Numbered from the stretch's first letter, positions 12,852 through 33,064 are shown. The stretch: DNA of 64,000 bases from an uncultured Candidatus Saccharibacteria bacterium (GCA_964525295.1 CAZGEO010000002.1:1230-65229), one strand, 5' to 3'. Notes: generated by a model not told the origin, from the letters alone. Translations and numbers: made by a program.

Positions 12852-13907
12852 CTAAAATTTAACTAATTCACTCGTATTAGTCGTTCCCTTGAAATCGCTA
12901 CCTTTTACCGTGGCAGAATAATTGTGCTCGTGCACACTTCCGTCGTCAAGCGTTAGCTTCATTTTCCAGGACATTGTTGCATCCATCTGATTACGAGAAA
13001 TTCCATAAGAAACTTCGTGCGAGGCGATATCGTAAGCGGTATTTATATTTGTCGATCTGGCAACATCAATGTATTTAAAGCGTAAACCAAGAAAGCCCAT
13101 CTTGCGAGCTACTTCATCATTGTAATCACAGCTGTAATCTGCATTGCAAATTTTTGGTGAATATGTAGTTCCAAGAGAAGGCATTCGTTCATAATCTGCT
13201 GCGGTATAGTACCCGAATGAATTCCAGTCTTCAAATTCTTGGGTTGATCCAATGGTTCCGCCATTTGCAGACTGACTCACGTGTGAATGTGGCAAAATGT
13301 ATAATTTTCCTGAGGGCAGTTTCGTTTGAATTGAAATATCTGAAATCTCAGCTTTTACAACGTTTCTGGTTTGATCGTTGACTTGGTAACTAAACCTCAC
13401 TGTGTAAGTAACGTGTTTAGAGACCGTTTTCGCCGAATTTGAAGTTATGTGACTGCCAACCCAGATGTTCGCATAACTTCCTTCAGTAAAGTTTATGGCA
13501 GGTATTGGTGTCGGTTCGTTGTTACTGATCGAATCAGAAGTAGGAGATTTTATTATGACAGTATCGTAAACTCGTCTGTTTGGAAAAATTAAACTGAGTA
13601 TGATGAAAAGAATCAGTATTAAGAACGTTGCTACCTCTATCGCAAAATTACTTAATGGTGGAGGAATTTTTAAGACAGTGAATATGTTGCTAAGTTGTTG
13701 CTGCAAATAAATATCCCTTTTAGCAAAGAAAATTATCAATAACGCAAATAAAATGAAAAAAATGATCAACCGTACGAAGTGATAATTTAAGGAATTTAAG
13801 CCGTAGGGGAGTAAGTAAAATTTCATTATCAATAACGTTACGAGTAGTAATATTGCAAGAATTGCAATATTTGGATGCTCTGAAATAAATTGTTTTATCT
13901 TCTGCAT
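12852..13907 (-). CDS. Membrane protein of unknown function (N-terminal TM segments, C-terminal extracytoplasmic domain)
   Basis: 351 aa with 3-4 hydrophobic helices in the first 110 aa followed by a hydrophilic Cys-containing domain. First gene of the hydrolase operon. Confidence 0.45.
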   Translation of the reverse strand: MQKIKQFISEHPNIAILAILLLVTLLIMKFYLLPYGLNSLNYHFVRLIIFFILFALLIIFFAKRDIYLQQQLSNIFTVLKIPPPLSNFAIEVATFLILILFIILSLIFPNRRVYDTVIIKSPTSDSISNNEPTPIPAINFTEGSYANIWVGSHITSNSAKTVSKHVTYTVRFSYQVNDQTRNVVKAEISDISIQTKLPSGKLYILPHSHVSQSANGGTIGSTQEFEDWNSFGYYTAADYERMPSLGTTYSPKICNADYSCDYNDEVARKMGFLGLRFKYIDVARSTNINTAYDIASHEVSYGISRNQMDATMSWKMKLTLDDGSVHEHNYSATVKGSDFKGTTNTSELVKF

Positions 13908-14009: not shown

Positions 14010-15665
14010 ATGTCAGTACTTAAAACCAATATTGCTAAAATCCTCATAGTATTGGCTGTTTTTGTATCACTTCCAATTGCAGTTATTGTTCCCCGAGTAA
14101 TTGCGGATACAACAACAACTCAGGTAACAGTTTCTAATTCAGCTCCTTCGTTTTCGATAGCTCCCTACGAGTCACCTGCCTCAACTGCAACTGCCCCTAC
14201 AAGTGTTGGAAATACAGTAACTTTTTATGCAACCGCAACCGATTCAAATGGCGATGCTTATCGTCTAGTACTGTGTAAAACAAATGCAATTACTGCGAAT
14301 GGTGTCTCAGATCCAATTTGTGGTGGCGGCTCCTATTGTTTATCATCATCAACCACTTCAGGAAATCAAGCAAGTTGTGCCTATACCGCACTTTCTGGCG
14401 ACCCAGAAAGTAATGCATGGTATGCATTTGTGTGTGATGTAGTTTCTGGTTCTGCATGCTCTTCGGCTGCACAGGGCACTGGCGATGCTGGTTCACCATT
14501 TTCTGTAAACCATCAACCAGCTTTTACAGCAATTACTGAGAATTCTGCCTTACCTGGGGCAGATATTACGTTTAGCGCGACAGCTAGTGATTTTGATGTA
14601 GAAAGTACTGCCGATCAGGTTCGTTTAGTAGTTTGTTCAACCGCAGGCGCAACTGCTGATGGTTGTACTGTTCCAGCAAATCAGCTCTGCATAAGTTCTT
14701 ATACTGCAACAAATCCTAGTTGTTCCTATACCTTACCGAGTGTGAGGCAAGATGGAAATGTTACGTATTATCCATATGTATTTGATTCACATAACCTTGG
14801 TGCAGCAAATAACCCGCTGGCGAGCCAACAATATACCGTGCTGAATAGTGCTCCAGTTGTTTCAGATGTCGTTATTAACGGTGGAAATCCAATTTCATTG
14901 ACTGCTGGCACAGCAACGAATTTCACGGTAACGGGCACAGTAACAGATATCAATTCTTGTCAGGATATTGCTAATGTTCGAACAAGTACCTATCGTTCAG
15001 GCGTCGGATATTCAGCATGTGACGAAGTTTCGGAACAGAATTACAATTACTGTTATGCTTTAGTGAGTTGTAGTGTTGTTGGTGGTACGTGTTCGAGCGC
15101 ATCAGATGGAGTGAGTGATTATTCTTGCACTGTCTCAATGCAATTTAACGCGGATGCAACTACTTCTGGAACGTTGTTTCCAACTGAAAACTGGTTGGCA
15201 ACATTACGTGCTGCAGATTCCTCATTAGTTGGAACTGCCGAAACTGTTACCGGTGTAGAGGTTAATACCTTGTTGGCATTATCGCTTGATGCATTGGTAG
15301 CGTATGGTAATGTTGGTGCAGGTACTGATACAGGTGCAACAAATGCTACAACAACGGTATCGGCTGTTGGAAATGTTGGGCTGGACATTGAAGTCTCTGG
15401 TACAAGTATGACAAATGGTACCGATACCATTCCGGTCGCAAATCAGAAGTATTCGACAGCATCATTTACTTATTCATTAGCGGGAACGGCACTATCTACA
15501 ACGCCGACTTTTGTTCCTTTGCATGTGACTAAAACTACTTCTTACTCAACACCAGCTTCAAAATTGATGTACTGGGGAATTGCAATTCCTGCTGGAATTA
15601 GTATGGGAACATATACTGGTACAAATACGTTAACAGCTATATTAAGTGATACGGTGAATTGGTAA
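14010..15665 (+). CDS. Secreted Cys-rich surface protein with a C-terminal WxL-like domain
   Basis: 551 aa with an N-terminal signal/TM. Internally duplicated Cys-rich modules. The C-terminal ~130 aa (..DIEVSGTSMTNGTDTIPVA..YWGIAIPAG..GTYTGTNTLTAILSD) resembles the WxL cell-wall-binding domain and is shared with the 1359-aa protein. Confidence 0.55.
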   Translation: MSVLKTNIAKILIVLAVFVSLPIAVIVPRVIADTTTTQVTVSNSAPSFSIAPYESPASTATAPTSVGNTVTFYATATDSNGDAYRLVLCKTNAITANGVSDPICGGGSYCLSSSTTSGNQASCAYTALSGDPESNAWYAFVCDVVSGSACSSAAQGTGDAGSPFSVNHQPAFTAITENSALPGADITFSATASDFDVESTADQVRLVVCSTAGATADGCTVPANQLCISSYTATNPSCSYTLPSVRQDGNVTYYPYVFDSHNLGAANNPLASQQYTVLNSAPVVSDVVINGGNPISLTAGTATNFTVTGTVTDINSCQDIANVRTSTYRSGVGYSACDEVSEQNYNYCYALVSCSVVGGTCSSASDGVSDYSCTVSMQFNADATTSGTLFPTENWLATLRAADSSLVGTAETVTGVEVNTLLALSLDALVAYGNVGAGTDTGATNATTTVSAVGNVGLDIEVSGTSMTNGTDTIPVANQKYSTASFTYSLAGTALSTTPTFVPLHVTKTTSYSTPASKLMYWGIAIPAGISMGTYTGTNTLTAILSDTVNW

Positions 15666-15666
15666 T

Positions 15667-16635
15667 ATGGAGAAAAACTGCCCGAAAATTATTTTTCAAA
15701 TGAGTGGAATTGTCGCATTGCTTCTGTGCAGCTTTATTGTAAATTTTGCTCCCGTAAATGCTGCCAACTCAAGTTTGGGCGTTTCCCCTTCGGAAATAAA
15801 GAACGAATATTTGGTTCGTGGCGCGAAATATACAGAAGTAATAACTATTTCGCGCACAGATGCATCTGCCGAAGCGAAGATTCGATTTATTGTTGATGAT
15901 TCAACCATAGAAGATTGGATAGTTTTCGCAGATGGTGCCCAATTGCAGATGGCAAAAGGAGTGCATCGTATTGCACAGAGAGTAGAAATTACGATTCCTG
16001 CAAATGCTGCGTATAAGGCCTATGATGGTTCAATTCGTGTCGTTATGGAGGGGCCTTCGGCTGGGCAAGTGAATATACTCCCCGGTGTCAAACTTGATGT
16101 ATCTCTGGCAGTTTCTGATAAAGTGTTCACAAAATTACGCGTTCTATTTATCAAATTTTTACCTTCTGCTCAGGGGCAACCCTATGCTGCAAGTATCAAA
16201 ATTGCAAATGAGGGCAACAGTGAGATAGCCCCCGATAAACTAGTAGTTAAAATATTTGATACAAGTAAGAATTTACTACGCACGATAACAATAAAGGATA
16301 TTCCAAAGGTAAAAGCCTTTACTACTGCAGAAATTCCATTGTTCCTGACCGATAGAGAACCTTTAGGAGAAGGTGAATATCTGACTGAAGTGGCCTTATT
16401 CCAAGGTGAAAACGAAATTTTTTCAGATGTAGCATCATTGGTAGTTTTTATTGGAAAACCAACTGAAATTACGGTATCACCAACCCCAACTGGGGCGACT
16501 TCGGGTACTCTCTCTCTCTTGCAAATAATGACTGGTTTATTAGTATTGATCATTGTATTGTTACTCGCAGGCCTTATTGGTATTTGGTTTGTTTTTGTCA
16601 AAAAGAAAAATAAGGATGATGACGTTCCTAGGTAG
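15667..16635 (+). CDS. Cell-surface protein with N-terminal signal and C-terminal TM anchor (DUF916/DUF3324-like partner of WxL proteins)
   Basis: 322 aa. Signal peptide, Ig-like middle, and a C-terminal hydrophobic helix followed by KKKNKDDD. Its position between two WxL-like proteins mirrors csc/WxL loci. Confidence 0.45.
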   Translation: MEKNCPKIIFQMSGIVALLLCSFIVNFAPVNAANSSLGVSPSEIKNEYLVRGAKYTEVITISRTDASAEAKIRFIVDDSTIEDWIVFADGAQLQMAKGVHRIAQRVEITIPANAAYKAYDGSIRVVMEGPSAGQVNILPGVKLDVSLAVSDKVFTKLRVLFIKFLPSAQGQPYAASIKIANEGNSEIAPDKLVVKIFDTSKNLLRTITIKDIPKVKAFTTAEIPLFLTDREPLGEGEYLTEVALFQGENEIFSDVASLVVFIGKPTEITVSPTPTGATSGTLSLLQIMTGLLVLIIVLLLAGLIGIWFVFVKKKNKDDDVPR

Positions 16636-19600
16636 ATTACTTCGTAAACGTGTCGTGCTGTTTTTAATTTTTCTTACCTTTTTAGTTCCCGGTATAGAGC
16701 CAGTTTCTGCAGTTAATGTTACTGGTACAATTTCGACAAATACAACATGGAATACCTCGGGAACGCCATACGTTATGACAGGAAATGTGACGGTTGCAAG
16801 TGGTGTCACCCTCACGATTGATGGAACTGCAGGCTTAGTTGAAGTAAGAAGCGGTGGTAATTACAGGTTGACGGTAAATACTGGTGGCACGCTAATTGTT
16901 ACTGGAACTTCAGCGAATCCTGTTAGATTTACGCATAATACATCAACGAGTTTAGGCGCATGGGGGGGAGTTAGGGTCGCTTCTGGCGGTACTGCAACGG
17001 TAAACTACGCAAGAATGACCTATTCGTCTACGTCATTCATGGCAGATGGTGGGACCTTAGTAGTAAATGACTCAGTATTAGAATCAAATACAAATGGTCT
17101 TGTTGTCGCGAGTACTGGAAATATTACGACTGCAAGAAACACTTTTATCAAGAATACCTATCCAATATCTTTGGAGTGGGAGTCCACATATTCGTTTGGT
17201 ACCGGTGCAGACGCAGATATTCTTGGAACAGATACGAATAAAAATACGTACAATGTTTTGGCAGTTGGTAATTATGATCCATATGGAAACAACTGTCCTG
17301 CAAATGTATGTACAATATCACAGAGAACTTTTGCGGGAATCGCAAATATTCCCTATCAAGTTGTGCCTACAACATATTTTCTCGATTCAGCCGATGACTT
17401 ATATATTTTTGATGCAGGTGTCATAATAAAAGTTGCCAGTAGATTGCACTTTAGACAGGCAACTCGGGTACAGTTCAATAGTTCAAGTGGTAATAATGTA
17501 ATTTTCACGAGTATTCACGATGATACGGTCGGTGGCGATAGCAATAATAATGGCACAGCAACTTCGCCCGCAGCCGGAAATTGGTATGGAATTGTGGTTC
17601 AGTCGAGTCAAGCACAGACATATTCATTTTGTACTATAAAGTATTCGATTTATGGCATTTATGCGAGTGCTGCCACAGCAAATGTTTTGATAACTGATTC
17701 AATTTTCGATAGAAACACTGATGCAGTTAATGCGACAAATGGGGCAACAATTCAGACCGCTCGCAATACCTTTACTCGTAATGATTTTGCAATAAGTGTC
17801 GATTGGGAGGCAACTTACAATTTTGGTGCTGGCGCAGATGTCGACATAATTGGAATAGGTGCTGATAGCAATAAGTATAATGCCATTGGCGTAGGGAATC
17901 AGGATGCTACCGTCTCAGATTGTCCGGCAAATAGCTGTGTGGTTCAAAAGAAAAACTTTGCTGGTATTACAAATATTCCATATATGCAGACATCCACATA
18001 TTATTATATTACTGGAAACGATGACACGACTACCATAGAACCCGGAGTGATTATTAAGAGTACAGGACGTATGTATATTCGTGGTACGTCCAAACTTGTC
18101 GCACAGGGTACTGTAGGCGAACCAATTTATTTTACGAGCTATCGAGATGATTCAATTGGTGGAGATTCAAATAATGATTCAACAACAACAACTCCAGCTG
18201 CAGGTAACTGGATTGGGGTGATTTTTGAAAATTCTGTGAATCAAACGGTAAGTAATTGTGTCGTTCGATATGCAGAACACGGCATTACTGCAAGTGGAAA
18301 CACTGGCCTTGTAACTATTCAAGATAATGTATTTGAGAATAATTCTTATGCGGTTAATTCATATAGTAGAGCTGCAATTTCGACAGCTCGAAATACCTTC
18401 AAAAAGAATGTTTTTCCTGTAAGTATGGATTGGGAAGCGCAAGTAACTTTTGGTCAAGGTGCCAATACCGATATTCTGGGTAGTGGGGCAGATAAAAACA
18501 CATATAAAGCAATATCAGTCGGTGCATATGACAACAATAATACTGATTGTATTGCGAACCAATGTACCATAAGTCAGCTGACTTTTGCCGGAATTTCAAA
18601 TATTGATTATGTACTAGAACCTTTCATATATTACTTCAATAGTGCAGATGATGTTATAACGTTTGATCCTGGGGTTGTTATCAAAATGGATGGTAGAGTA
18701 CAGGTAAGCAATTCAGTAGTCTTCAACTTTAATGGTACCTCTGGTTCACCAGTTTACTTTACCAGTATTCACGATGATACTATCGGAGGTGACATTGCAG
18801 AAAATGGTTCAGCTACAGTACCTGCCCGTGGTGACTGGTATGCTTGGATATTTTTGGGGACTACTGCAGTAAGCTTTGATAATTGCGTTGTCAAGTATGG
18901 AAATGTAAGTGTTATTTCAGGCGCAGCCTCGGCTGTTGTGTATGTAACAGATAATGTTTTTGAAAATAATATCTATCCAGTAAGTGCAAATAATAATGGC
19001 GTAATTCATACGGCAAGAAATGTATTTCGCAAGAATCAAGCTCCAGTATCACTTGAATGGGACTCAACTTTAGTTCCTGGAACAGATAGCAATGCTGATA
19101 TCTTAGGTACTGGCATCGATGCAAATGATTTTAATGCTATTAAAGTAGGAGCACATGACAAAAATGCTACTAACTGCCCAGCAAATACGTGTACGGTATC
19201 ACAACTCACCTTTGGTGGAATTCAGAATATACCCTATTACGCAACGAACGAAATTGTCTTTGAAGGTACCGATGACACACTAGTATTTTCACCTGGAGTA
19301 ATAATGAAATTCGACGGTGGTAGCGTAACGGTAAGAAGTGGTGCAAAAATTTCGATTGCAGGAACTTCTGCAGGTCGAGTAGTTTTTACCTCTGCGAGAG
19401 ATGACTCGGTTGGGGGAGACACAAATAATAATGGTTCAACCAATGCACCTGCAAAAGCCGATTGGAATTCTTTGAATCTTCAATCTGGTGCTAATTCGGT
19501 CGCATTTGTGGAAGTCCGTTATTCCCGTGATGGTATTTATGCAACTGGGGGCACACTATCAGTTTCGGATGCAGACTTAACGACTAATACAAATGGAATG

Positions 19601-20632
19601 TGGGTCGTATTAAGTGCATCACCAACTCTAGCGAGAATAAACTTTCAAGGGAACACCACAGGTTTACGTAATGGTAATAGCACGATAATTCAAGCACAAA
19701 ATCTCTGGTGGAATAGTGTCAATGGTCCCAATGATACGAGCAGTACCGGCCAGTGTCCACTTAATGTATCAACTGGCGATGCAGTAATCGATACCTCAAC
19801 AAATCCAGTTCTGTATTGCCCATTTGCAGTAACCAAATTTAACGCGAATTCATTGCCATCTGCTGCAGATACCTTGATTGATGGTGGAAATATTGTCGTA
19901 AATTTGACCGAGTCAACGACTACTTCAGTAACCTGCACTACCAATGTTATTGATGCTGATGGTTATACTGATATCGCGGGGGTAAATGCGATTTTATATA
20001 GAACATCACTCGGCGATAGTGGATCGAACAATGACAATTATCGGTACTCAGTTGCCTGTTCTGCAGGTTCTGGAAGTGGCACCTTACGTGCGTATTCATG
20101 CAACTTTACTGTTTGGTTTCATGCAGATCCGACAGATGCCTCTTCAGCAAATTCAGGTGATGATTGGACTTGCAAGGTAAGTCCTTACGATGCAGGTGGG
20201 GTTGGGGTAACTGATACAGATACCATTGAAATGGGATCGGTTATCGGAATTGAAGTCTCTAGTCATATTAATTATGGTAACCTAAACGGTGGCGACAATA
20301 CAGGAAGTACAAATATTACGAGTGCAATAGCTAATTCAGGAAACGTAGCAATCGATATTGAAATGTATGGTCAAGATATGTGTACAGACTTCCCAGCCTG
20401 TGCAGCTGGGGTCATTCCCGTTACTCGTCAGCAATATAATACTAGTTCGTTTAGCTATGGAGCTGGAACAGCATTAACTGCTTCACCAGTATTTATTCCT
20501 CTTAATATTGCAAAATCAACGGCTCATCCACCAAATCTGTCGAGTACACTATATTGGGGGCTAGGTATTCCTGCTGGTGCGCAAATGGGGGCATATACGG
20601 GGCAGAATACTTTTACAGCGTTGTTACATTAA
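16616..20632 (+). CDS. Giant secreted beta-helix repeat protein with a C-terminal WxL-like domain
   Basis: ~1339 aa from the ATG at 16616 (the longer ORF from 16553 overlaps the upstream gene). Signal peptide MMTFLGRLLRKRVVLFLIFL..VSA. Four ~209-aa modules with PbH1-like NxxGI turns. The C-terminus is homologous to that of the 551-aa protein. Confidence 0.7.
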   Translation: MMTFLGRLLRKRVVLFLIFLTFLVPGIEPVSAVNVTGTISTNTTWNTSGTPYVMTGNVTVASGVTLTIDGTAGLVEVRSGGNYRLTVNTGGTLIVTGTSANPVRFTHNTSTSLGAWGGVRVASGGTATVNYARMTYSSTSFMADGGTLVVNDSVLESNTNGLVVASTGNITTARNTFIKNTYPISLEWESTYSFGTGADADILGTDTNKNTYNVLAVGNYDPYGNNCPANVCTISQRTFAGIANIPYQVVPTTYFLDSADDLYIFDAGVIIKVASRLHFRQATRVQFNSSSGNNVIFTSIHDDTVGGDSNNNGTATSPAAGNWYGIVVQSSQAQTYSFCTIKYSIYGIYASAATANVLITDSIFDRNTDAVNATNGATIQTARNTFTRNDFAISVDWEATYNFGAGADVDIIGIGADSNKYNAIGVGNQDATVSDCPANSCVVQKKNFAGITNIPYMQTSTYYYITGNDDTTTIEPGVIIKSTGRMYIRGTSKLVAQGTVGEPIYFTSYRDDSIGGDSNNDSTTTTPAAGNWIGVIFENSVNQTVSNCVVRYAEHGITASGNTGLVTIQDNVFENNSYAVNSYSRAAISTARNTFKKNVFPVSMDWEAQVTFGQGANTDILGSGADKNTYKAISVGAYDNNNTDCIANQCTISQLTFAGISNIDYVLEPFIYYFNSADDVITFDPGVVIKMDGRVQVSNSVVFNFNGTSGSPVYFTSIHDDTIGGDIAENGSATVPARGDWYAWIFLGTTAVSFDNCVVKYGNVSVISGAASAVVYVTDNVFENNIYPVSANNNGVIHTARNVFRKNQAPVSLEWDSTLVPGTDSNADILGTGIDANDFNAIKVGAHDKNATNCPANTCTVSQLTFGGIQNIPYYATNEIVFEGTDDTLVFSPGVIMKFDGGSVTVRSGAKISIAGTSAGRVVFTSARDDSVGGDTNNNGSTNAPAKADWNSLNLQSGANSVAFVEVRYSRDGIYATGGTLSVSDADLTTNTNGMWVVLSASPTLARINFQGNTTGLRNGNSTIIQAQNLWWNSVNGPNDTSSTGQCPLNVSTGDAVIDTSTNPVLYCPFAVTKFNANSLPSAADTLIDGGNIVVNLTESTTTSVTCTTNVIDADGYTDIAGVNAILYRTSLGDSGSNNDNYRYSVACSAGSGSGTLRAYSCNFTVWFHADPTDASSANSGDDWTCKVSPYDAGGVGVTDTDTIEMGSVIGIEVSSHINYGNLNGGDNTGSTNITSAIANSGNVAIDIEMYGQDMCTDFPACAAGVIPVTRQQYNTSSFSYGAGTALTASPVFIPLNIAKSTAHPPNLSSTLYWGLGIPAGAQMGAYTGQNTFTALLH
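17132..19639 (+). repeat. Four in-frame tandem coding repeats of exactly 627 nt (209 aa) inside the giant beta-helix gene
   Basis: Modules begin ARNTFIKN (17132), ARNTFTRN (17759), ARNTFKKN (18386) and ARNVFRKN (19013). ~50% aa identity with a conserved CPAN-C, FAGI-NIPY, FTS-DD-GGD and AAGNW skeleton. Confidence 0.8.
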
Positions 20633-20646: not shown

Positions 20647-21483
20647 CTATTTCTGTTTGCGCAACATAATATAAATTCTGTTATGACTTGGAGAAAACGT
20701 AATTGTTTTAGAATAGTTATCTTCTTTCCAGGTCATCATTTTTGATTTTGCAGAATACTCATAATTTTCTTTTTTGTCGAATGCTGTAATGAATTTTTTC
20801 TCTAGAAAAGCGAATTCATCGACATCGTCTTTGCCATCTTTATCTTGGTCACCTGTGTTACTCACGGTAAAATATTGGGTATATTCTATTTCACCTCCCT
20901 TCTGATTAAGAAAACCGTAAGATTTTTCGTGTTCTGTCAGGTATGTTTTATCGGTGAGTGTATCTGGCATATTTTCAAAGTATCTTATGTTCTCAGTAAT
21001 TTCTGAAGTAACGTAAACTTGGAGATATGCGGTTTTTCCACTTCCATAGTGAGATGCGGTAATTTTGTATTGTCCTTTGGTACCCTTGACCATATCATCA
21101 TTGGGATATTCATCGGTTATTTGAGAATCAAAAAAAGATTTGTAATAGTTCAGAAACTCTTCTTTCGAGGCATCTGTATCGAATACAACGTTGAAGTATG
21201 CAAAATTCTTTTCTCCAAATATTGAACTATTTTTTGGATCATTATTCATAAAGAATTTGCTAGAAGAAATTTTTATGACTTTATAAAGTGGAACAGTTTC
21301 TTTTGGAAATTCTGCTAAAAGAAATTCATTTTCAATTGCGGTCGTTGTTTGTGTCGTAGCTGGAGTTTCTGATGTAGGCGTTTGTTTTTTCAATAGATTT
21401 GGCGCGAGAACGGGTGTAAGTAGCGCAAATAAAATGACGAGTGCAAGTATACTGCCAGTAATAATTTTCTGCTTTTGTGTCAT
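20647..21483 (-). CDS. Secreted/anchored hypothetical protein with one canonical EF-hand-like calcium-binding loop
   Basis: Start most plausibly at Met25 of the ORF (MTQKQKIITGSILALVILFALL signal anchor). A DQDKDGKDDVDE 12-residue loop lies near the C-terminus. Confidence 0.45.
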   Translation of the reverse strand: MTQKQKIITGSILALVILFALLTPVLAPNLLKKQTPTSETPATTQTTTAIENEFLLAEFPKETVPLYKVIKISSSKFFMNNDPKNSSIFGEKNFAYFNVVFDTDASKEEFLNYYKSFFDSQITDEYPNDDMVKGTKGQYKITASHYGSGKTAYLQVYVTSEITENIRYFENMPDTLTDKTYLTEHEKSYGFLNQKGGEIEYTQYFTVSNTGDQDKDGKDDVDEFAFLEKKFITAFDKKENYEYSAKSKMMTWKEDNYSKTITFSPSHNRIYIMLRKQK

Positions 21484-21545
21484 ATCGTATTGTACCAGAG
21501 CTTCGCGATAATGTGACAATTGAGGATTGTACGTTATAATTATGA

Positions 21546-22088
21546 ATGGAAACATTCTTTATATCAAAAACTGGAGCGCAATATCGATTAGGGAAATTGG
21601 AAGCGCGTGATATTCAAGCATTAAAAGAAATTTCTGAACAATGGGTGCGTAATCGTATTACAGGCGAAATTGTATTTTCAGAAATAGCTAGTATTGAGCA
21701 AAGAATGCTTAAAAGCTTAGAATCTGAGGAGTATCGTTACCTCGTTGTGCGAGATAGCAATGGAAAAGCGGTAGGGATGTGTGCAATTCGTGAGCCTGAA
21801 GAAGCAATGCAACAATACAAAAGTAATGAAAGTGCAGTAACCTTCGAACTGATTAATGTGTTTCTTGATAAGAATTTGCGTGGTCAAGGAGTTGGAAAGG
21901 CTTTATTAGAGTACATGTTTGAGGTAGCGAAATCTTTTGGCGCTGTTGAGGTTATTTGGAATAGTGGACCTCGTTATAAAAATTCTGCTTGGGAATTTTA
22001 CACACATCTTGTAGGTCAACCTTTTGCCATTGCTAAAGAATTTTACGGCGAAGGTGGCGATGCACCTGTTTGGCGGAAGATATTGTGA
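21546..22088 (+). CDS. GNAT family N-acetyltransferase
   Basis: 180 aa. Motif A LRGQGVGKALLEYMFEVAK (the R/QxxGxG/A acetyl-CoA loop). Confidence 0.8.
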   Translation: METFFISKTGAQYRLGKLEARDIQALKEISEQWVRNRITGEIVFSEIASIEQRMLKSLESEEYRYLVVRDSNGKAVGMCAIREPEEAMQQYKSNESAVTFELINVFLDKNLRGQGVGKALLEYMFEVAKSFGAVEVIWNSGPRYKNSAWEFYTHLVGQPFAIAKEFYGEGGDAPVWRKIL

Positions 22089-22753: not shown

Positions 22754-25027
22754 CTAATCGTCATTTGAAAAGTGGTTTTCTTTCGGATTTAAAAATAAAT
22801 CTACAATCTTCTTAGACTCTTCATCCAAATTTTTTAATTTTAAAACTTTTTCCTTTACGACATCATATTTGTAGAACACCTCGAAGTTCTTTTTTATAAA
22901 GTTTTGAGTCTTTTTATAGCTATAATCAGACATTCCCTGACTTCTTGTTGTAGAGATAAATGCTTTAATGATGTACTTTAAATTCTTTGGCTTTTCTGCA
23001 TTTTCAAGAAATTTGGATAAGTCGGTATTGTCTCCCCATTCTTTCCATGTAAACAAAATATAAGCTAAATCTTTATGCTCAATCAATATATTAAACTTTG
23101 CCTTATTGAGCTTTTCTACACATAGCGTTTGTAATTCGGTTATATTTGATGTATCTAAAATGAATTTTGATTCGTCTTTTGCTTCATCTTTCTTTGGAGT
23201 CTCTAAGGAAACAAATTTTATTGGGCCGATAATACCTTGTGATAGTGGGATAAGCTTACTAATAAGTTCATTGTTTGCCTTTTTGTCCTTTATGTTTTTA
23301 AGAAGATGAAAAATAACTCGTTGTAAATCCATGTCTATTCCAAAATCCCACATTGAATCTTCGGTTTCTGGCAAAATATCGGAGACATTAAATAATGCAA
23401 GAATTATATTTTCGTAGTTTGTAGAAGGTATTAATTCCGTATCCGAAGTGTATGAAAGCATCTTTTTAAGTAGCTTTCTAATTCTCTTACTTTCTATATA
23501 TTTTCTAATTTCTGTTTCAAAGTCCTTTTGAATATTTGCTAGACTAAAAATGTATTCAATCTCAAATTGAGAAATTTCCCCTTCATCTCCACCTGGTATA
23601 AGAGTGAAATATTGATCAAAACAACTTGTAGCACATATTCTAAGTGTTTTTTCCCATACCTCTTGCCATTCATGTCCATACGAAGTATTGCCAAACCCAT
23701 CTACATTACCTTTAACCTGAGGGAATAACTCAAAAATAATTTTTCTAGTGCTCTCTCTTTGTTCAAGAGAAACTTTATCAAAGGCAGACGATATTTTGCT
23801 TTTTCGTTCCTCTCTTGGTTTTGTACTTGAGCCAATATAATTTGATTCTGTGGTGGTAAACAAGATTTTTTCATATTTTAGAAAATTGTAAAACTCAGGA
23901 GCAAATATTCGTACAGATTCTAATGCAAAGAAATCAACAGGATTAATTTCTAAGATATTTTTATTAATTAATTGTTTTATTGAGAACTCTAACCCATTGA
24001 TAAACCTTTTAATATCCCTAATGGTTACAAAATAGTCTTTAAATCCTGAATTATAAATATTTGCCCAGTAGGAGTCTTTGTCGAAGTAAATAGATGATTT
24101 TTCAGGTAACAACGACAAGATTCTATCTAATTCCGAAAACAAATATTGATGTATTTTAGATTGGTGTCTTAATGGAAGATCTAAATTTACCTGTACTATT
24201 TTTTCTAAGTACTCTTTTCCATTCACCTTTAAATAGTCTCCAATACTATTTTCGATTATATCCTTATCGTAAGCTAACAAATAGATTGTATTAGGAAAGT
24301 TAGCATTTGCTCTAATAAGTCTGAATACTTCATTCATTTCAGCTGGAGTCAATCTATCAATGTCGTCAATTACAATAAGTAATTTCTTATCTCGGTTGTT
24401 TAAGTTCTTTTCAATAGAACTCTTTACTTCATCAATTGAATAACTTTTATCACTGACCTTTGCTTCAAAGTATGCAGATACTTTCCTGAAAAATGTCTTG
24501 ATAATCCCTAAAATTAGCAATATAAGTCCTACAATGAATAGTATGAGCGATACTTCTTTTGAATATGGGTTTAAGGATGAGATGATTCTATCTGCTGTAA
24601 TTCCAATAATTCCTATGAGGATTACAACAACTTGTTGAAAGCTTATGGTGTCCTCAACGGTGGGAATGATCTCTAAAAAACTAGCATATTTTTTAAACTG
24701 CTTTGCGAGTGCTAAATCTTTTTCATTTTCATTTTTTGACTCGAGTTGAGTAGAAATTTCGTTGAAAAACTTATTTGTAATATCTGCATTAGAGAATTCC
24801 CAAGGATTAAAGCTAATAAGCGTTGGCGTTTTTTCCTCTTGAAATAAAGATTCTTTAACAAGGTTGATTATTGAGGTTTTACCAGTACCCCATTTACCAT
24901 TTAATGATATAACTAGGCTTTCTTTGTTTTTCCATTCCTTTATTGCGTTTGATAGTGAATCGGAAAAATGACTTCTATTTAGTATGTCGTCATTTCTTTT
25001 TTCGATTGGTTGATCTGGTTTAAACAT
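22754..25027 (-). CDS. KAP-family P-loop NTPase
   Basis: 757 aa. N-terminal Walker A SLNGKWGTGKTS, an internal pair of TM helices interrupting the NTPase (a KAP hallmark), Walker B IVIDDID. Confidence 0.8.
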   Translation of the reverse strand: MFKPDQPIEKRNDDILNRSHFSDSLSNAIKEWKNKESLVISLNGKWGTGKTSIINLVKESLFQEEKTPTLISFNPWEFSNADITNKFFNEISTQLESKNENEKDLALAKQFKKYASFLEIIPTVEDTISFQQVVVILIGIIGITADRIISSLNPYSKEVSLILFIVGLILLILGIIKTFFRKVSAYFEAKVSDKSYSIDEVKSSIEKNLNNRDKKLLIVIDDIDRLTPAEMNEVFRLIRANANFPNTIYLLAYDKDIIENSIGDYLKVNGKEYLEKIVQVNLDLPLRHQSKIHQYLFSELDRILSLLPEKSSIYFDKDSYWANIYNSGFKDYFVTIRDIKRFINGLEFSIKQLINKNILEINPVDFFALESVRIFAPEFYNFLKYEKILFTTTESNYIGSSTKPREERKSKISSAFDKVSLEQRESTRKIIFELFPQVKGNVDGFGNTSYGHEWQEVWEKTLRICATSCFDQYFTLIPGGDEGEISQFEIEYIFSLANIQKDFETEIRKYIESKRIRKLLKKMLSYTSDTELIPSTNYENIILALFNVSDILPETEDSMWDFGIDMDLQRVIFHLLKNIKDKKANNELISKLIPLSQGIIGPIKFVSLETPKKDEAKDESKFILDTSNITELQTLCVEKLNKAKFNILIEHKDLAYILFTWKEWGDNTDLSKFLENAEKPKNLKYIIKAFISTTRSQGMSDYSYKKTQNFIKKNFEVFYKYDVVKEKVLKLKNLDEESKKIVDLFLNPKENHFSNDD

Positions 25028-25029
25028 AC

Positions 25030-26553
25030 TTAATCAAAATTCTTAATTGAATCTTCGTAAAGCCTATCAAATAAATTGCTGGTATGCATTATGTACTCTG
25101 GAATCTGAAACTTTCCATTTGTTAATTTTTCATATAAATCCTTTATTGTTTTATCTAAACTTTCTGAATAAATAAACGGGATTTTTTTAATATAATTCGC
25201 AGAGTTATTTGCAGTATGGTTAATGACCTTCAATAATTGAGTACAAATCTCCGAGTTAAGAAAAGTAAGTAAATATAAATAATGTTCATCATTCTCAGGA
25301 AAAATCCCCACGATTGATTGATCAAAAAGCCTATCTTTCAATTCAAACGCAAATAGTCTCGAGCCTTTTACCATTGGGATACCAATCCCTTTTTTAAAAT
25401 AATACTTTGAGTTTTGGAATCTAGCTTTTTTATCTTTTCTATAATAATCAACACTTGCTTTATTCCAATTTATAAACCACTCATTTTCTTTGACAAGATG
25501 TGATCCTCCACCTTTAAGGATTGGAATATATGAATTCTTGCCATTGATTCCATTAATATCAATTTCTTGATTGAACGATATTAAGTCTTTATCTACGGGA
25601 ATTAAGTCTTTTGCCCCTTTAACCGTATTTGAGATGGGCTTTAAATGCAATTTATTATCACCTGAATAAAAACCTGTGACACAATTAGCAATATCTCCAA
25701 CTTTTGTATGATAATTAGTAATGAAACTTCTAACTTTTTCATCACCTCCTATATAAAAAGACAAAGAGTCTGTTGTTTTTATATCATTTTGAAGTACAGA
25801 ATAATTACTATCTCCTTGATTCGAAGCTGTTTTTAACAAATTAATATCTTCGACTTTTGTTGAAACTGAAACGATTTTAATTCTATCTTCTTCAGTATTT
25901 GGTCTTTTAACTAAAGTGATTATACATAGGTTTGAATAACCAAAACTTACACCCGGAAAAAACTTTGATGGAATAAGTAGTATTTCTTCAATTGTTGTAC
26001 TGAATAACAATATTTTCCTTATCTTCTTATGGAGATTTAATGCTAGAAATGTATCTGGCACTATAAATACAAGCCTGCCATTCTCTCGAAGTAATGAGAT
26101 GCAACGTTCAAGGAATAGTGTATATGTTTCTTTGACATATCCACCATACTTTTTTTTGAGATTTGCTTTCTTTTTTTCATCTTGCCAAGCACCATACGGT
26201 GGATTTCCAATTATTTTTGTAAAGTATCCACCACTATTCGCATATAAGTCAAAAGTCAAATCAAACAAAGTATCAACTTCACGAATTTTTATACCTTTAT
26301 CTTGAAACTTTCTTTTCAGTTCTTTAACTGCTTTGGGGTTTAAATCAACTGCTTCGATGAATTCTGATGAAAAATCTTGAGATAATATTTTCTCAATAAA
26401 TAATCCATCTCCAGCACAAGGCTCTAGAATAACATCCTTTTTTACTAATTTCAGTTTGTCTACCATATAATCCAAGATAGGATCTGCATCCGTATAATAC
26501 GAACAGTATTCATATCTCTTTCTTGTTTTTCCGTTAATTATGTTGTCTACCAT
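25030..26553 (-). CDS. N6-adenine DNA methyltransferase (gamma-class, NPPY) with a C-terminal target-recognition region
   Basis: 507 aa. Motif I VILEPCAGDGLF, motif IV IIGNPPYG. Overlaps the upstream gene by 7 nt. Confidence 0.8.
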   Translation of the reverse strand: MVDNIINGKTRKRYEYCSYYTDADPILDYMVDKLKLVKKDVILEPCAGDGLFIEKILSQDFSSEFIEAVDLNPKAVKELKRKFQDKGIKIREVDTLFDLTFDLYANSGGYFTKIIGNPPYGAWQDEKKKANLKKKYGGYVKETYTLFLERCISLLRENGRLVFIVPDTFLALNLHKKIRKILLFSTTIEEILLIPSKFFPGVSFGYSNLCIITLVKRPNTEEDRIKIVSVSTKVEDINLLKTASNQGDSNYSVLQNDIKTTDSLSFYIGGDEKVRSFITNYHTKVGDIANCVTGFYSGDNKLHLKPISNTVKGAKDLIPVDKDLISFNQEIDINGINGKNSYIPILKGGGSHLVKENEWFINWNKASVDYYRKDKKARFQNSKYYFKKGIGIPMVKGSRLFAFELKDRLFDQSIVGIFPENDEHYLYLLTFLNSEICTQLLKVINHTANNSANYIKKIPFIYSESLDKTIKDLYEKLTNGKFQIPEYIMHTSNLFDRLYEDSIKNFD

Positions 26554-27476
26554 TCCAAATATTGCAGTAAGCTATTCTTTTTTAAATGGGAATACATTAC
26601 TGAGTCGAAATCCTTTTCCCAGTCAATAAAAGTATTCATCCAATTTGCTAAATTAAAGCCAGTTACTTCCTCAATTTTCTTGTATGTTTCTGTCCCACAA
26701 TAAACCGTCCAGAGCCCTGATCTTTTTAATGTTTGTAGATAATGGTTATTGTTTTCTTCACTTGCTCGTACAAATAGTAAACATTGATGACCTTCTTCAA
26801 GTATTTTGTATATACTTGCGACTAAAAGGAGTCGATTAGTATTGCCTTTTTCGTTTGAGCTAAAGCCACTCTTAAAGTCAACGACAAATTTATCCTGTCC
26901 GTTTTCAAAATGTAAATCAAGCTCAAGGCTTATTTCGCCAGATGTGACTAATGTCCAAACTTTTTGATAATATTTTCTTAATTCCGCCTTTTCTTCCTCA
27001 GTGATATTTAATGAGTCGATAAAATCATTTAGTTCTGCTGACAGTTTTATGCGGACATCATTGAAAAGTGGAGGAATAATATACTTAACATTCTGATTAA
27101 TTGGATTTTCCCAACATAATTGACAAAATGGCTCCCATAGTTCACCTATCCTTCTTGCAAATGTCATGTACTCGTATGGCCATACTTCATTTCGTGATTC
27201 CATCATTACTATGTAGTTTGTATATGTAATCAATAAGACACCTTCTAAAATTGCTTTTGAAGACCAATTCTCAGACTGGGCTTTTTGTTTTAGTGTTTTT
27301 ATTAAATTCTCCTTGCATGAAACTAATTCACTATTAATTGCTGAAGCCCGCAGTTTGTAGTCTTTTTCTCCATAGGTTTGCTTGATTTGAGATAGAAACT
27401 CTCTAGATCTGCTTCTAAAATATTCTAGAAGTTCAGTCTTTTTTGTTCGGATATTATTGTCTATTAGTTCAGACAT
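26547..27476 (-). CDS. Putative restriction endonuclease (PD-(D/E)xK-like) partner of the MTase
   Basis: 309 aa. Candidate ELDLH ... VVDFKSG catalytic residues. Sits between the C-protein gene and the MTase gene in a translationally coupled operon. Confidence 0.4.
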   Translation of the reverse strand: MSELIDNNIRTKKTELLEYFRSRSREFLSQIKQTYGEKDYKLRASAINSELVSCKENLIKTLKQKAQSENWSSKAILEGVLLITYTNYIVMMESRNEVWPYEYMTFARRIGELWEPFCQLCWENPINQNVKYIIPPLFNDVRIKLSAELNDFIDSLNITEEEKAELRKYYQKVWTLVTSGEISLELDLHFENGQDKFVVDFKSGFSSNEKGNTNRLLLVASIYKILEEGHQCLLFVRASEENNNHYLQTLKRSGLWTVYCGTETYKKIEEVTGFNLANWMNTFIDWEKDFDSVMYSHLKKNSLLQYLEW

Positions 27477-27477
27477 T

Positions 27478-27699
27478 TTATTTATATAATAATTTATCTA
27501 TTGTTACTTCCAAAGCTTCTGCAACTTTCATTATAAAGTTGATTGATGGCTTTTTTATTACCTCAGTTTCAACTTTTACTAGAGTAGTGAGTGGAATATC
27601 AGCCTTTCTTGCTAACGCTTCCTGCGACAAATCTTTTTCCTTTCGCCACTTCTTTATTTGCTCTGCAATATTAACTTTTTGCGTATGTCGTGTTTCCAT
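27478..27699 (-). CDS. XRE-family HTH regulator (R-M controller C-protein-like)
   Basis: 73 aa. LSQEALARKADIPLTTLVKVE helix-turn-helix. First gene of the R-M operon. Confidence 0.75.
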   Translation of the reverse strand: METRHTQKVNIAEQIKKWRKEKDLSQEALARKADIPLTTLVKVETEVIKKPSINFIMKVAEALEVTIDKLLYK

Positions 27700-27793
27700 T
27701 TATTGCAAGTCTATTAATGTTACTTTGTATAGTTTAGCATTCAAAAATTAAATCTACAAATAAAATGCTTGTATTCAAAATCTGCTCAGATTG

Positions 27794-27822
27794 TTGACAA
27801 ACTATTTAGAGTGGTATATATT
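27794..27822 (+). promoter_or_regulatory. Sigma70-type promoter for the plus-strand element genes
   Basis: TTGACA at 27794-27799, 17-nt spacer, TATATT at 27817-27822. Divergent from the C-protein gene. Confidence 0.45.
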
Positions 27823-27860
27823 AGTATAGTGACAAACATTAATATATTTAACTCAATACT

Positions 27861-28640
27861 ATGAATATCGTAGATAAAACAATAAGTAACTTTGTAAAAC
27901 AGATGTATGAATGGGGTTTAACTTCCGATACAACAAATAGATATGATCTTTCCTCAGATACAGTTGTCGATTTGATTACAAAAAGCTCATGGAATATTGA
28001 ATTTGATAGAAAGAAACTCATTTACTATTCACGACATAGTTTTCTTCCCTCAGCTAAGAAAATGGGCTTAACCTCTGCACTTGGTGGAACAGTTGGTTAT
28101 CACAAAATCAAAGTACCAATGATGTTATGGTACATTCACCAGTTGTACAAACGAGGATATAAGCATGATGAAATACGCATCCATGTTTACAACTATTTTT
28201 CAAGCCAGTTGCCACCAAAACCAGTTGAAAATACTCCAATGGAAGAAAGAGTCCTCTACAATCTAAGACTTAATAAAAAGCTCTTTGTAGCCCTCCCAGT
28301 TGTTGAAGAAATGACTGTGTATACTCAAAAGGTATCAATACCATGTTGGAAACTAACAGTATTTGACTATTACCACTCAAAATTAGACCCATTCTATGTG
28401 GTTTTAATCCCTAAAAATAACTTAACAACTCAAGAAGCTAATATCCTTTCAGTTTTACGAACTGATAACGAGTATCTCAAACAAGAGGGATTTAAACGAG
28501 TTTCAATTGTTGATGGGGTATCAAGCATTGAATATCTTGAACCTTTAATGATTTACAAGAACTACGCCATGAAAACCGATAACGATAGTACCGATTATTT
28601 AGATTTATTAGATCAAAATATCTCTTATGACACAATCTAA
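27861..28640 (+). CDS. hypothetical protein (element cargo)
   Basis: 259 aa with no recognisable motif. Confidence 0.4.
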   Translation: MNIVDKTISNFVKQMYEWGLTSDTTNRYDLSSDTVVDLITKSSWNIEFDRKKLIYYSRHSFLPSAKKMGLTSALGGTVGYHKIKVPMMLWYIHQLYKRGYKHDEIRIHVYNYFSSQLPPKPVENTPMEERVLYNLRLNKKLFVALPVVEEMTVYTQKVSIPCWKLTVFDYYHSKLDPFYVVLIPKNNLTTQEANILSVLRTDNEYLKQEGFKRVSIVDGVSSIEYLEPLMIYKNYAMKTDNDSTDYLDLLDQNISYDTI

Positions 28641-28842
28641 AGTATCACCTGAACTAAAAAAACAATATCTTGAGCTATTACAAAGCCCTGAAATATACAA
28701 TATTCACTTGGAAGATCTCAAAAAGATAATTGAAGAATTTACAAAATTTGAGTTTGGTACTTACGAAATTAAAATATCAAATAAAAGGATTGATAGCACG
28801 ATATTACATATAAAAACAGGTAAAAGAAAAACGAAACAATAA
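28627..28842 (+). CDS. small hypothetical protein
   Basis: 71 aa, overlaps the upstream gene by 14 nt. Confidence 0.3.
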   Translation: MTQSKVSPELKKQYLELLQSPEIYNIHLEDLKKIIEEFTKFEFGTYEIKISNKRIDSTILHIKTGKRKTKQ

Positions 28843-28890
28843 GTAAATAATTTAGATATTAGCCCTCAGCTACCCTTAGTTGAGTTGTAG

Positions 28891-28967
28891 AGAGGTCTAA
28901 GTCTTAAAGGTCATTTGTTAAGCATAACGCTTACAGCCTTTTTGATTTAGACCTCTTTTTTGTTTTT
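28891..28967 (+). terminator. Candidate intrinsic terminator (10-bp stem AGAGGTCTAA/TTAGACCTCT with a structured loop, then TTTTTGTTTTT)
   Basis: Perfect 10-bp inverted repeat 28891-28900/28947-28956 followed by a T-run. Confidence 0.4.
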
Positions 28968-29146
28968 AAAACATATGAAGAAGCGAAAGCAGAAAACAAA
29001 AAATGAAAAAGTAATGCGTGAGTTTGCAAGAAACTGGATTCTGCTATTCCTTGAGCAAAATGGATATTCGCATTTAATTGGTAAATCTAAAAAGGTAACG
29101 AAATCGTCAGTAGATATAAACCCATTAAGCAACTTTTTGAAAAACA

Positions 29147-29935
29147 ATGATAAAAGCAAATAACCAAGACAAAGTAATATTTCGAGAGTTAGAAAAGCAA
29201 TACGGTTTTGCTCAAATTAGCCATTTAATAACGGAAGATAGATTGCTTTCAGACCTTGCAGTCAGAGTTTATTTAGCTTTGCTCAAATATGCCATGAATA
29301 AAAACTACTGCTTTCCAGGACAAGACAGACTATCCGAAACAATCGGCAAAAGCAGAAGCTCAGTATTTAGAGGATTAAATGAGCTTAGAAATCGTGGGCT
29401 TGTGTCTTGGAAAACACGAGGACTTAACAAAACGAATATGTATATCCTTGAGCCAATTTCAGAAATATATGCTGAAAAACTCAATACTATTGCGGATGTG
29501 TCAGAATTGCAACATCCAGATGTTGCAAAATTGACACATCAAGGTGAGTCAGATTTGACCTACAAAGAATATAAAGTTAAAGAAGAAAAGATTAAAAATA
29601 ATAAGTTAACGTTAAACGATGATTTTAAATCTTATTTAGAGGAAGCGATAGAACTAGCTAAAGAACTAAACGACCTCAAAAGCATCAAATATTATCAAAT
29701 GCTAATCAGCCAAAAGAACAAAGGCATTGTTAATTCAGAAGATATTACAGATTCTCTTATTTTTACACGCACTCAAATTCGTACAGCTCAAGTTGATGGA
29801 ACAAAACCTCTCAGCAATCCTGCTGGACTATTTGTAAAAACACTTAAAGATTTACAGGAGAAACGAAAACGCAAAGAGCAATTGGCAAAACTTGAAACTA
29901 TGAGGAATAAATTCTTAGAAAAATCTAAATTTTAA
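29147..29935 (+). CDS. HTH_36-type replication initiator / replisome organiser-like protein
   Basis: 262 aa. FPGQDRLSETIGKSRSSVFRGLNELRNRGLV matches the winged-HTH of plasmid/phage Rep proteins. Charged coiled-coil C-terminus. Confidence 0.5.
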   Translation: MIKANNQDKVIFRELEKQYGFAQISHLITEDRLLSDLAVRVYLALLKYAMNKNYCFPGQDRLSETIGKSRSSVFRGLNELRNRGLVSWKTRGLNKTNMYILEPISEIYAEKLNTIADVSELQHPDVAKLTHQGESDLTYKEYKVKEEKIKNNKLTLNDDFKSYLEEAIELAKELNDLKSIKYYQMLISQKNKGIVNSEDITDSLIFTRTQIRTAQVDGTKPLSNPAGLFVKTLKDLQEKRKRKEQLAKLETMRNKFLEKSKF

Positions 29936-30067
29936 CTATTAAAAACCATGATTGATAAAGTGTTGAATGTACCTCACCGAAAAGGGCTTTTGGAGGGATC
30001 CAGTTTCTCACCATGTTGTCAAATACGAAAGTTACGGTCTGTCGGACTTTTACAGAACCTCGTGACT

Positions 30068-30115
30068 GATTGGGTGGAAGACGAAACTGCGTTTCCTAAT
30101 GTCTTCCACCCAATC
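30068..30115. repeat. 15-bp perfect inverted repeat with an 18-nt loop containing a nested 5-bp hairpin (candidate replication origin or regulatory stem-loop)
   Basis: GATTGGGTGGAAGAC (30068-30082) and GTCTTCCACCCAATC (30101-30115). The loop holds GAAAC-TGC-GTTTC. Flanked by GAGGGA/TCCCTC. Locally GC-rich. Confidence 0.7.
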
Positions 30116-30219
30116 ACTCCCTCGACAACGATTAATGTGTGTGAGTTACACATTAAGTTCTGTGAAAAGTGTGTGATCGACAGACCTTACTTTATTTAAT
30201 TTTTTAGTTATTTATTTTT

Positions 30220-31197: not shown

Positions 31198-31220
31198 GCG
31201 ACCACAACTTAAATATTTGC

Positions 31221-33007: not shown

Positions 33008-33064
33008 GCATACACCTATATCAGTTTTCAAGACTGACGCCATCAACCACTCGGCCACCCCTCC
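32975..33064 (-). tRNA. tRNA-Ser (anticodon TGA), with encoded CCA
   Basis: 90-nt type II tRNA. GGAGGGG acceptor, 3-bp D stem, anticodon loop CTTGAAA, long variable arm (ATAGG/CCTAT), T loop TTCGAAT. The 3' 21 nt form the element attR core. Confidence 0.85.

Follow-up and report, generated by a model that had tools for sequence, protein, structure and literature searches.

We analyzed a 64,000-nucleotide stretch of DNA, hereafter the window, labelled as an uncultured Candidatus Saccharibacteria bacterium (GCA_964525295.1, CAZGEO010000002.1:1230-65229), and in it a three-gene operon, A-B-C, that encodes two secreted proteins with the same C-terminal unit and, between them, a small membrane-anchored protein. 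Our results indicate that this cassette is probably organized like the WxL/WxLIP clusters of Firmicutes and homologous to them in part. Protein B is likely a remote homologue of WxLIP, and the terminal domain of A and C, which we named CT, is not detectable as a WxL domain. An earlier note on this DNA had read the whole as a WxL locus; the WxLIP-like partner and the gene order stood, and the WxL domain did not. What is new here is probably that, in Patescibacteria, a WxLIP-like anchor is coupled to another C-terminal domain, one that is unannotated and very abundant. The literature that we searched contained no link of WxL/WxLIP or DUF916/DUF3324 with the candidate phyla radiation (CPR).

The A-B-C operon and its products

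The three open reading frames (ORFs) abut on one strand, at 14010-15665 for A, 15667-16635 for B and 16553-20632 for C, with a gap of one base between A and B. Counted from 16553, the ORF of C comprises 1359 aa; a start at ATG 16616 or 16619 (MMTFLGRLL..., MMTFLGRLLRKRVV) is more likely, and would give C a signal peptide and an overlap of 17-20 nt with the 3′ end of B. Gene calling done independently on contig L001, which is 99% identical, yielded products of 551, 311 and 1337 aa. Because the neighbours on both sides lie on the opposite strand, A-B-C forms a compact transcription unit; in scans for consensus promoters and terminators, counts did not exceed those of shuffles. All three products have a signal-peptide-like N-terminal segment, and a second hydrophobic segment is present in B alone, at about residues 282-311, with KKKNKDDDVPR after it. 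Pfam and NCBIfam scans of A, B, C and the two flanking genes returned nothing useful, and hidden Markov models (HMMs) for WxL, WxLIP, CT and B detected no additional copies in the window, which thus holds a single cluster. The features of the operon are as follows.

14010-15665, plus strand: gene A, 551 aa (ORF call, homologue search, module alignment)
14127-15221, plus strand: three Cys-rich Ig-like modules of A (module alignment, Cys positions)
14832-15221, plus strand: third Ig-like module of A (..FNADAT..NW..), part of the unit in common with C (BLASTP from A269)
15222-15662, plus strand: CT domain of A, residues 405-551, predicted seven-stranded beta-sandwich (AlphaFold2 (AF2) model, conservation)
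15667-16635, plus strand: gene B, 322 aa (311 aa with a start at 15700), WxLIP-like, membrane-anchored
15763-16116, plus strand: B domain 1, about residues 33-150, aligned to WxLIP PGBD/DUF916 (hhalign P=4.8e-4; model pLDDT<50 here)
16117-16470, plus strand: B domain 2, about residues 151-268, aligned to WxLIP HBD/DUF3324 (hhalign P=3.6e-4; model pLDDT 65-85)
16510-16632, plus strand: transmembrane helix of B (about residues 282-311) and basic cytoplasmic tail KKKNKDDDVPR (hydropathy; kept across the B family)
16616-20632, plus strand: gene C, giant of ~1338 aa, start inside the end of B
16733-19240, plus strand: four tandem beta-helix modules of C, ~209 aa each (repeat motif, Cys periodicity)
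19820-20629, plus strand: unit of C in common with A (BLASTP E=5e-43)
about 19841-20161, plus strand: Ig-like module of C (..FHADPTD..), within the unit in common with A
20162-20629, plus strand: CT domain of C (CT HMM E=7.6e-42)

Residues 269-545 of A align with residues 1090-1358 of C at 37% identity (BLASTP, E=5e-43). The sharing of a C-terminal region noted earlier is therefore real and far above chance, and it extends over ~285 residues rather than ~130. The region starts with a Cys-rich Ig-like module, with the signature ..(F/Y)xADPTD..W.., and ends with the ~145-aa CT domain. A is built from a signal peptide, three such Ig-like modules and CT; in C, the signal peptide is followed by four beta-helix modules, another beta-rich region, one Ig-like module and CT. 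The four modules of C follow an exact 209-aa period and are 36-41% identical to the first. An ARNxF motif recurs in them (residues 173, 382, 591 and 800), and their Cys positions are periodic too. Together with PF28492 (Beta_helix_4), precomputed in the gene table, they bear out the giant third protein with four beta-helix modules that had been proposed; our own Pfam scan added a weak NosD match (E=0.005). CT of C contains a two-Cys loop, MCTDFPACAAG (20330-20362), found in many family members with the consensus MCTDYPTCSGG, and CT of A is without it, reading MTNGTD at 15396-15413. This loop may be disulfide-stapled and separate CT subtypes.

We then compared 26 related CPR loci, 22 of them drawn from one-per-species genomes and four from contigs of diverse A homologues. 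HMMs located 18 B-like genes in 17 of these loci, and every one of the 18 adjoins a CT gene on the same strand, nine of them with CT genes on both sides; some loci have an extra upstream giant of 2,400-3,200 aa that also ends in CT. This strict adjacency, with frames that abut or overlap, favours a functional pair. Of the three-gene order to be checked in sibling genomes, the adjacency of CT to B thus held for all 18 B-like genes, and CT on both sides for 9/18. The succession of a docking-domain protein, a WxLIP-like protein and a large docking-domain protein is that of WxL loci in Listeria, Enterococcus mundtii and Bacillus cereus, in agreement with the csc-like gene order initially described.

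Named homologues come from Dojkabacteria, Doudnabacteria, Parcubacteria/Paceibacterota, Gracilibacteria and the ‘Patescibacteria group’, all of them CPR groups, as the earlier note had supposed for this genome; by these sequence relationships the genome that carries the operon fits a Dojkabacteria-like bacterium. Metagenome-assembled genome records with the cassette (L002, L004, L008, L011, L012, L015, L022) are labelled ‘uncultured Gammaproteobacteria’, ‘Caldisericales’ or ‘Candidatus Saccharibacteria’, and these labels, with Dojkabacteria as closest relatives, may be binning or taxonomy errors.

Gene B and its probable relation to WxLIP

B comprises a signal peptide, two beta-sandwich ectodomains, a C-terminal transmembrane helix and a basic tail, an architecture that matches WxLIP, and its 322 aa lie within the 320-380 aa given for that family (PMC10599100). 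The signal peptide and C-terminal anchor attributed to this middle protein are both present, and domain 2 carries a conserved N.GN ... L..GEY pattern. B evolves fast: besides B itself, a word-indexed search returned a single protein, at 24% identity, and the family was recovered through synteny. Many homologues in Dojkabacteria reach 440-630 aa (L002-L009, L037, L038; for instance L005:9711-11081 and L003:2508-4391) and in addition carry further transmembrane segments after the first helix (one or five, giving an even number by our count), then a C-terminal SH3b; SH3_3 is found in 8 of 14 B homologues, with a best E of 2e-12. SH3b is a peptidoglycan-binding module in Gram-positive lysins. Judged from the count of hydrophobic segments, the SH3b of the long forms would lie outside the cell, which would fit an envelope anchor; the B of this window belongs to the short form and has one transmembrane helix only.

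Reference WxL and WxLIP sequences were collected by a search seeded with tryptic peptides of EfmWxLIP3 (Table S13, PMC10599100), which led to Pfam-confirmed WxLIP fragments, through their contigs to Enterococcus loci with PF13731 WxL genes, and then by tblastn to plasmids. The tblastn step gave 12 annotated WxL loci, from Enterococcus, Lactiplantibacillus, Companilactobacillus, Lactococcus, Melissococcus, Listeria and Bacillus. With signal peptides included, hhalign aligned the B family with WxLIP at a probability of 92.4% (E=5e-7, 249 columns). Small sets without signal peptides fell to 14.5% (P=0.002), so that the first score was inflated by the signal peptides; the sets were therefore enlarged and controls added. 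Seventeen B and 12 DUF916+DUF3324 WxLIP sequences, stripped of signal peptides and transmembrane segments, gave 81.2% (E=1.2e-5) over 194 collinear columns. Domain 1 of B matched PGBD with P=4.8e-4 and domain 2 matched HBD with P=3.6e-4, values that beat those of cross-domain pairs (P=0.026-0.066) and reversed profiles (P=0.18-0.35) by two to three orders of magnitude; CT against WxLIP gave P=0.19. For the B model (pLDDT 51.5), Foldseek ranked 9i25_C first among 350,542 PDB chains (E=5.8e-5, 238 columns, TM-score 0.38); this chain is entitled ‘WxLIP from Enterococcus faecium locus A bound to long WxL’, and 9i1y_A/B hold ranks 23 and 26 for the same low-confidence model. PMC12537917, considered as the structure paper for 9i1y and 9i25, was rejected, as it names WxLIP in passing only.

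Several observations weigh against this assignment. The 14.5% of the smaller sets makes the profile support moderate. B itself is below Pfam thresholds, with no match to PF06030 or PF11797 at E<=1, and among its 14 homologues PF11797 appears in two (best E=0.016; L038 also has one faint precomputed match) and PF06030 in none, so that the Pfam evidence sought for DUF916 and DUF3324 did not materialize. PF11797 is moreover one among several weak E-set matches, along with Wzt_C, TRAP_alpha and CARDB; one homologue matches Por_Secre_tail (E=0.017), and others weakly match the glycan-binding sandwiches Wzt_C and a CBM3a-related chain. The strand-rich B model, built from a two-row alignment, is of poor quality, with an overall pLDDT of 51.5 and values of 65-85 in domain 2; tandem-sandwich glycosidases trail its WxLIP match by only ~3-fold in E-value, and at E<=10 the B-family HMM missed EfmWxLIP1 in a search of PDB sequences. 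Finally, B is without the NQIDKxxxYFDLK motif and the ~23-residue PGBD loop (TTNxNGVVEY...SLKY), both of which fall in alignment gaps; in the B family FGISP..I.NE is followed directly by L.PG, and the 10-residue NQIDK...YFDL segment is a gap. As the missing segment or loop may be the strand that inserts into WxL, the docking geometry of B could differ.

Because it lies below Pfam thresholds and is without NQIDKxxxYFDLK, B is a distant relative and not a member by current models. On balance we consider it likely that B is a remote homologue of WxLIP (DUF916+DUF3324): the architecture and profile similarity of such a partner are present in the middle gene, and the Pfam membership and the NQIDKxxxYFDLK motif are absent.

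The CT domain and the WxL domain

Domains of the WxL family are always C-terminal, and more than 91% of their distribution falls in Firmicutes; their hallmarks are two W-x-L motifs on adjacent antiparallel strands and a D-x-R-G-T-x-A-G turn before the first of them (PMC9772566). The shared domain of A and C had been taken for a WxL domain with a degenerate second W-x-L, and our comparisons did not bear this out. PF13731 matched neither A nor C at E<=1 and 0/60 CT family members at E<=10, and an HMM of 17 genuine WxL domains found nothing in the window (best E=1.5). Aligned by hhalign with these 17 domains, CT scored a probability of 1.1% (P=0.047) over the last 18 columns only, and 0.7-1.6% (P=0.03-0.09) across all versions. 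For comparison, the B family against WxL gave P=0.081 on the same motif, reversed WxL profiles gave P=0.33-0.57, and the positive control, small against large WxL, reached 98.5% (E=3e-15); the whole A family against WxL gave P>=0.2. CT has neither W-x-L motifs nor the D-x-R-G-T-x-A-G turn, the counterpart places being occupied by tGNvGlD..lSG and NT.TAv, and its only conserved internal Trp, W118 in WG[IL].IP, lies on the penultimate strand and at no WxL motif position. The solved long WxL (9i25_A) is outside the top 50 Foldseek matches of the CT model, although it is in the library and the top matches are weak. The WxL-like pattern noticed in the tails of A and C, ..IP.....G.Y.G...., is that of a generic terminal beta-hairpin, also present in the N-terminal domain of GH123 and in B domain 1. 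CT is thus not detectable as a WxL domain, and a common ancestry of the two beyond detection appears rather unlikely. The WxL traits that CT does share are contextual and not fold-specific: it is C-terminal in secreted proteins and adjoins a WxLIP-like gene.

Among the reference loci, a divergent WxL subgroup on conjugative plasmids (L042, B. anthracis pXO1; L043, a B. cereus plasmid; L044, Listeria pLIS32) is without one or both Trp, for example GRGYDVVLSA ... YETTVTVAVVQGP. It adjoins DUF916 proteins; nearby are CpaF/VirB11 genes (L042, L044) and, in L044, a protein with a thioester domain. This setting suggests that the subgroup acts in mating-pair adhesion during conjugation. Its W-less members (pXO1, pLIS32) align with canonical WxL at 97.7% by hhalign and with CT at P=0.6, which rules them out as a bridge between CT and WxL.

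CT is a large unannotated family for which no Pfam domain or name was found in the sources searched. The A family numbers at least 128 homologues of ~550 aa, with identity down to 33%, none of which has a Pfam domain or informative name. An exhaustive search of representative clusters (50% identity) with a CT HMM built from a 60-sequence alignment retrieved 2,555 clusters at E<=1e-3, of which 1,540 also pass E<=1e-10. In the 150 best of the 2,555, with proteins that reach 3,137 aa, the place of CT is nearly always C-terminal; in every CPR locus that we examined it occupies the extreme C-terminus. Matches of 108-350 aa were considered as ‘small’ CT proteins akin to small WxL and rejected: those inspected are N-terminally truncated contig-end fragments, without a signal peptide and beginning within the preceding Ig-like module. 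The smallest complete form encountered is therefore the A type (at least ~530 aa).

Conserved positions of CT are YG, tGNvGlD, Q.Y, K, WG[IL].IP, G.Y.G.NT and a terminal W. The AF2 model for CT of A is confident (pLDDT 91.7, pTM 0.82) and has seven strands; its best PDB matches by Foldseek are weak (E>=1e-3, TM-score 0.42-0.53) and include the GH123 N-terminal domain, CsuA/B-CsuC, CfaB, FimA-FimC, FimG, PapA, PapGII-PapD, TasA, TLP and archaeal cannulae, with the GH123 chain 5l7u_A at the top (E=1.1e-3). PF22680 (GH123_N_2) is likewise the commonest Pfam match, in 21 of the 60 members (best E=2e-5), because the CT profile fits ~30 residues of the GH123 terminal hairpin; GH123 chains also lead the PDB sequence matches (E=0.015), covering only CT positions 108-139. 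Since B domain 1 matches the same GH123 region, this match is not specific to CT. DUF4402 was matched by 8/60 members and SCPU by 1/60.

A candidate surface-display cassette

We lean towards a reading of A-B-C as a surface-display cassette that works like WxL/WxLIP with a different docking domain. It builds on the gene structure, shared unit, family size and strict adjacency observed above and on the moderate evidence that B resembles WxLIP, to which it adds a putative contact of B with CT and a putative surface location and adhesive role for A and C. The three proteins would be exported with Sec-type signal peptides from a cell without an outer membrane. CPR bacteria are not known to have an outer membrane or a type IX secretion system (T9SS). 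B would be held in the membrane by its C-terminal helix with both sandwiches outside, and would capture the Ig+CT unit (~280 aa) of A and C as a docking tag, possibly by beta-strand augmentation; the passengers, Cys-rich Ig repeats in A and the four-module beta-helix in C, would project outward as adhesin- or enzyme-like parts. Strand augmentation between WxLIP and WxL was predicted by AF2 models (PMC10599100), and a complex of WxLIP with long WxL has been solved (9i25). The matches of the CT model to donated-strand subunits make it compatible with docking of this kind. More broadly, and only tentatively, B and CT may constitute a CPR-wide surface-anchoring (sorting) system, in which a minimal WxLIP-like protein captures a C-terminal sandwich tag by strand complementation.

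It counts against the cassette reading that five loci have CT genes and no B gene within the stretch retrieved. Similarly, no complete small CT-only protein was found among the short matches inspected, so that the small/large pairing of WxL is not reproduced.

WxL/WxLIP (Csc) clusters were reportedly described by Siezen in 2006 and by Hassan and Williamson in 2022/2023. In Lactobacillales and Bacillales they combine a small WxL, a large WxL and a DUF916-DUF3324-transmembrane WxLIP (PDB 9i1y, 9i25). As in these clusters, A-B-C encodes in one direction a secreted protein, a membrane-anchored two-sandwich protein and a large secreted protein, and the two secreted proteins share a C-terminal beta-sandwich, the large one with beta-helix or Ig-like passengers. 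Unlike in these clusters, CT is not identified as WxL by HMM or profile-profile comparison, nor by its motifs or top structural matches; the short partner, of the multi-Ig type, has 550 aa, and no domain-only small partner was found; no LPXTG protein or sortase is encoded in the cluster; B is without NQIDKxxxYFDLK and the ~23-residue loop; and the host is a CPR bacterium and not a member of the Bacilli. By analogy, CT might also be likened to the C-terminal domains of T9SS (Por_Secre_tail) and to SLH, LPXTG and GW modules, where one C-terminal module serves many unrelated secreted passengers, although the only sequence match of this kind is that of Por_Secre_tail in one B homologue (E=0.017).

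The locus could instead be a true WxL locus, with CT a highly diverged WxL that binds peptidoglycan non-covalently and whose W-x-L motifs have eroded, and B its WxLIP partner. A WxLIP-like partner in the same gene order makes co-inheritance of both parts parsimonious, CT is C-terminal as WxL always is (PMC9772566), and genuine WxL domains can be without both Trp (pXO1, pLIS32). In addition, the low-stringency hhalign alignment is collinear, with YG facing the FG of WxL and the last strands in register, and one Listeria WxL tail, LTIPAGSATLGDHEATITWTLSD, resembles that of A, IAIPAGISMGTYTGTNTLTAILSD. We nevertheless regard this explanation as unlikely, given that PF13731 matches none of the 60 CT members, that the hhalign probability of 0.7-1.6% is no better than that of B against WxL, that W-less WxL domains are recognized as WxL at 97.7% yet give P=0.6 to CT, and that the whole A family gives P>=0.2 against WxL. 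The missing D-x-R-G-T-x-A-G turn and W-x-L motifs, the place of W118 on the penultimate strand, and the position of 9i25_A outside the top 50 matches in a Foldseek library that contains it all point the same way.

Two further explanations seem to us improbable. CT could be a pilin-like subunit assembled by donor-strand exchange, as in Csu pili of the archaic chaperone-usher type or in TasA/TapA fibres, with B as chaperone or as the membrane anchor that starts assembly. This is consistent with the best PDB matches of the CT model (CsuA/B, CfaB, FimA/G, PapA, TasA, TLP, archaeal cannulae), which recall donor-strand fibres (Csu, CFA/I, type 1/P pili; TasA/TLP; Pyrodictium cannulae), with the weak DUF4402 (8/60) and SCPU (1/60) matches, and with the notion that a partner of two Ig domains donates the strand that completes the sandwich. 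PapD-type chaperones consist of two beta-sandwich domains, as B does. These matches are weak (E>=1e-3, TM-score 0.42-0.53), however, and CT is a tag at the end of proteins of 550-3,100 aa, not a free subunit of ~150-250 aa, the short matches being fragments; there is no N-terminal extension, no usher or SipW-like peptidase occurs among the immediate neighbours, and the best structural match of B is WxLIP and not a PapD-like chaperone. The other explanation treats the modules as independent, CT being a sandwich like a carbohydrate-binding module, related to the GH123 N-terminal domain, that binds wall glycans or host surfaces, and B being only co-transcribed. GH123 is indeed the most frequent Pfam match of CT (PF22680, 21/60, best E=2e-5) and its top match in both Foldseek (5l7u_A) and PDB sequence searches (5l7u/5fqe/8k2h), and B homologues weakly match Wzt_C and a CBM3a-related chain. 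Yet the GH123 similarity is limited to a generic hairpin of ~30 residues at CT positions 108-139, which B domain 1 matches as well, no glycosidase catalytic domain is attached to CT, and mere co-transcription sits poorly with 18/18 B genes that adjoin a CT gene in abutting or overlapping frames.

Outside the operon, the flanking genes at 12852-13907 and 20647-21555, both on the minus strand, encode N-terminal hydrophobic segments, match no Pfam or NCBIfam model, and are also present on the near-identical contig L001. A low-GC island extends over 22754-33064 (GC 0.30-0.34, against ~0.40 elsewhere) and looks like a mobile or defence element integrated at a tRNA gene; it includes the following features.

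22754-25027, minus strand: KAP-family P-loop NTPase
25030-26553, minus strand: Eco57I-like N6-DNA methylase
31469-33007, plus strand: large serine recombinase, 3′ end abutting or overlapping tRNA-Ser(tga)
32975-33064, minus strand: tRNA-Ser(tga)

Just past the island, a VirB4/TraG-type P-loop ATPase is encoded at 34038-35906 on the minus strand (TraG P-loop E=4e-25, CagE_TrbE_VirB E=5e-7). This ATPase may be part of that element, or of the monoderm-type type IV secretion system reported for Patescibacteria. A 1097-aa ORF at 49062-52355 (minus strand), amid housekeeping genes such as that of alanyl-tRNA synthetase (47046-48941), has no Pfam match at E<=1e-5.

The A-B-C cassette is a concrete candidate for the means by which the ultrasmall CPR/Patescibacteria, on a cell without an outer membrane, retain very large surface proteins and attach to their hosts, reduced to one small membrane protein and one C-terminal tag. 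Defining CT would annotate many ‘hypothetical’ giant CPR proteins together and mark them as surface-exposed. If the more tentative reading, that of a CPR-wide anchoring system, is true, thousands of unrelated giants, with beta-helix, Ig-repeat, laminin-G, DUF2341 or other passengers, would be kept on the surface by CT and would supply much of the attachment apparatus of episymbiotic Patescibacteria. The WxLIP anchor would then be older than WxL and separable from it. For work on WxL, the pairing of a WxLIP-like protein with a domain other than WxL, outside Firmicutes, would indicate that WxLIP serves more generally as a docking platform and is no accessory of WxL alone.

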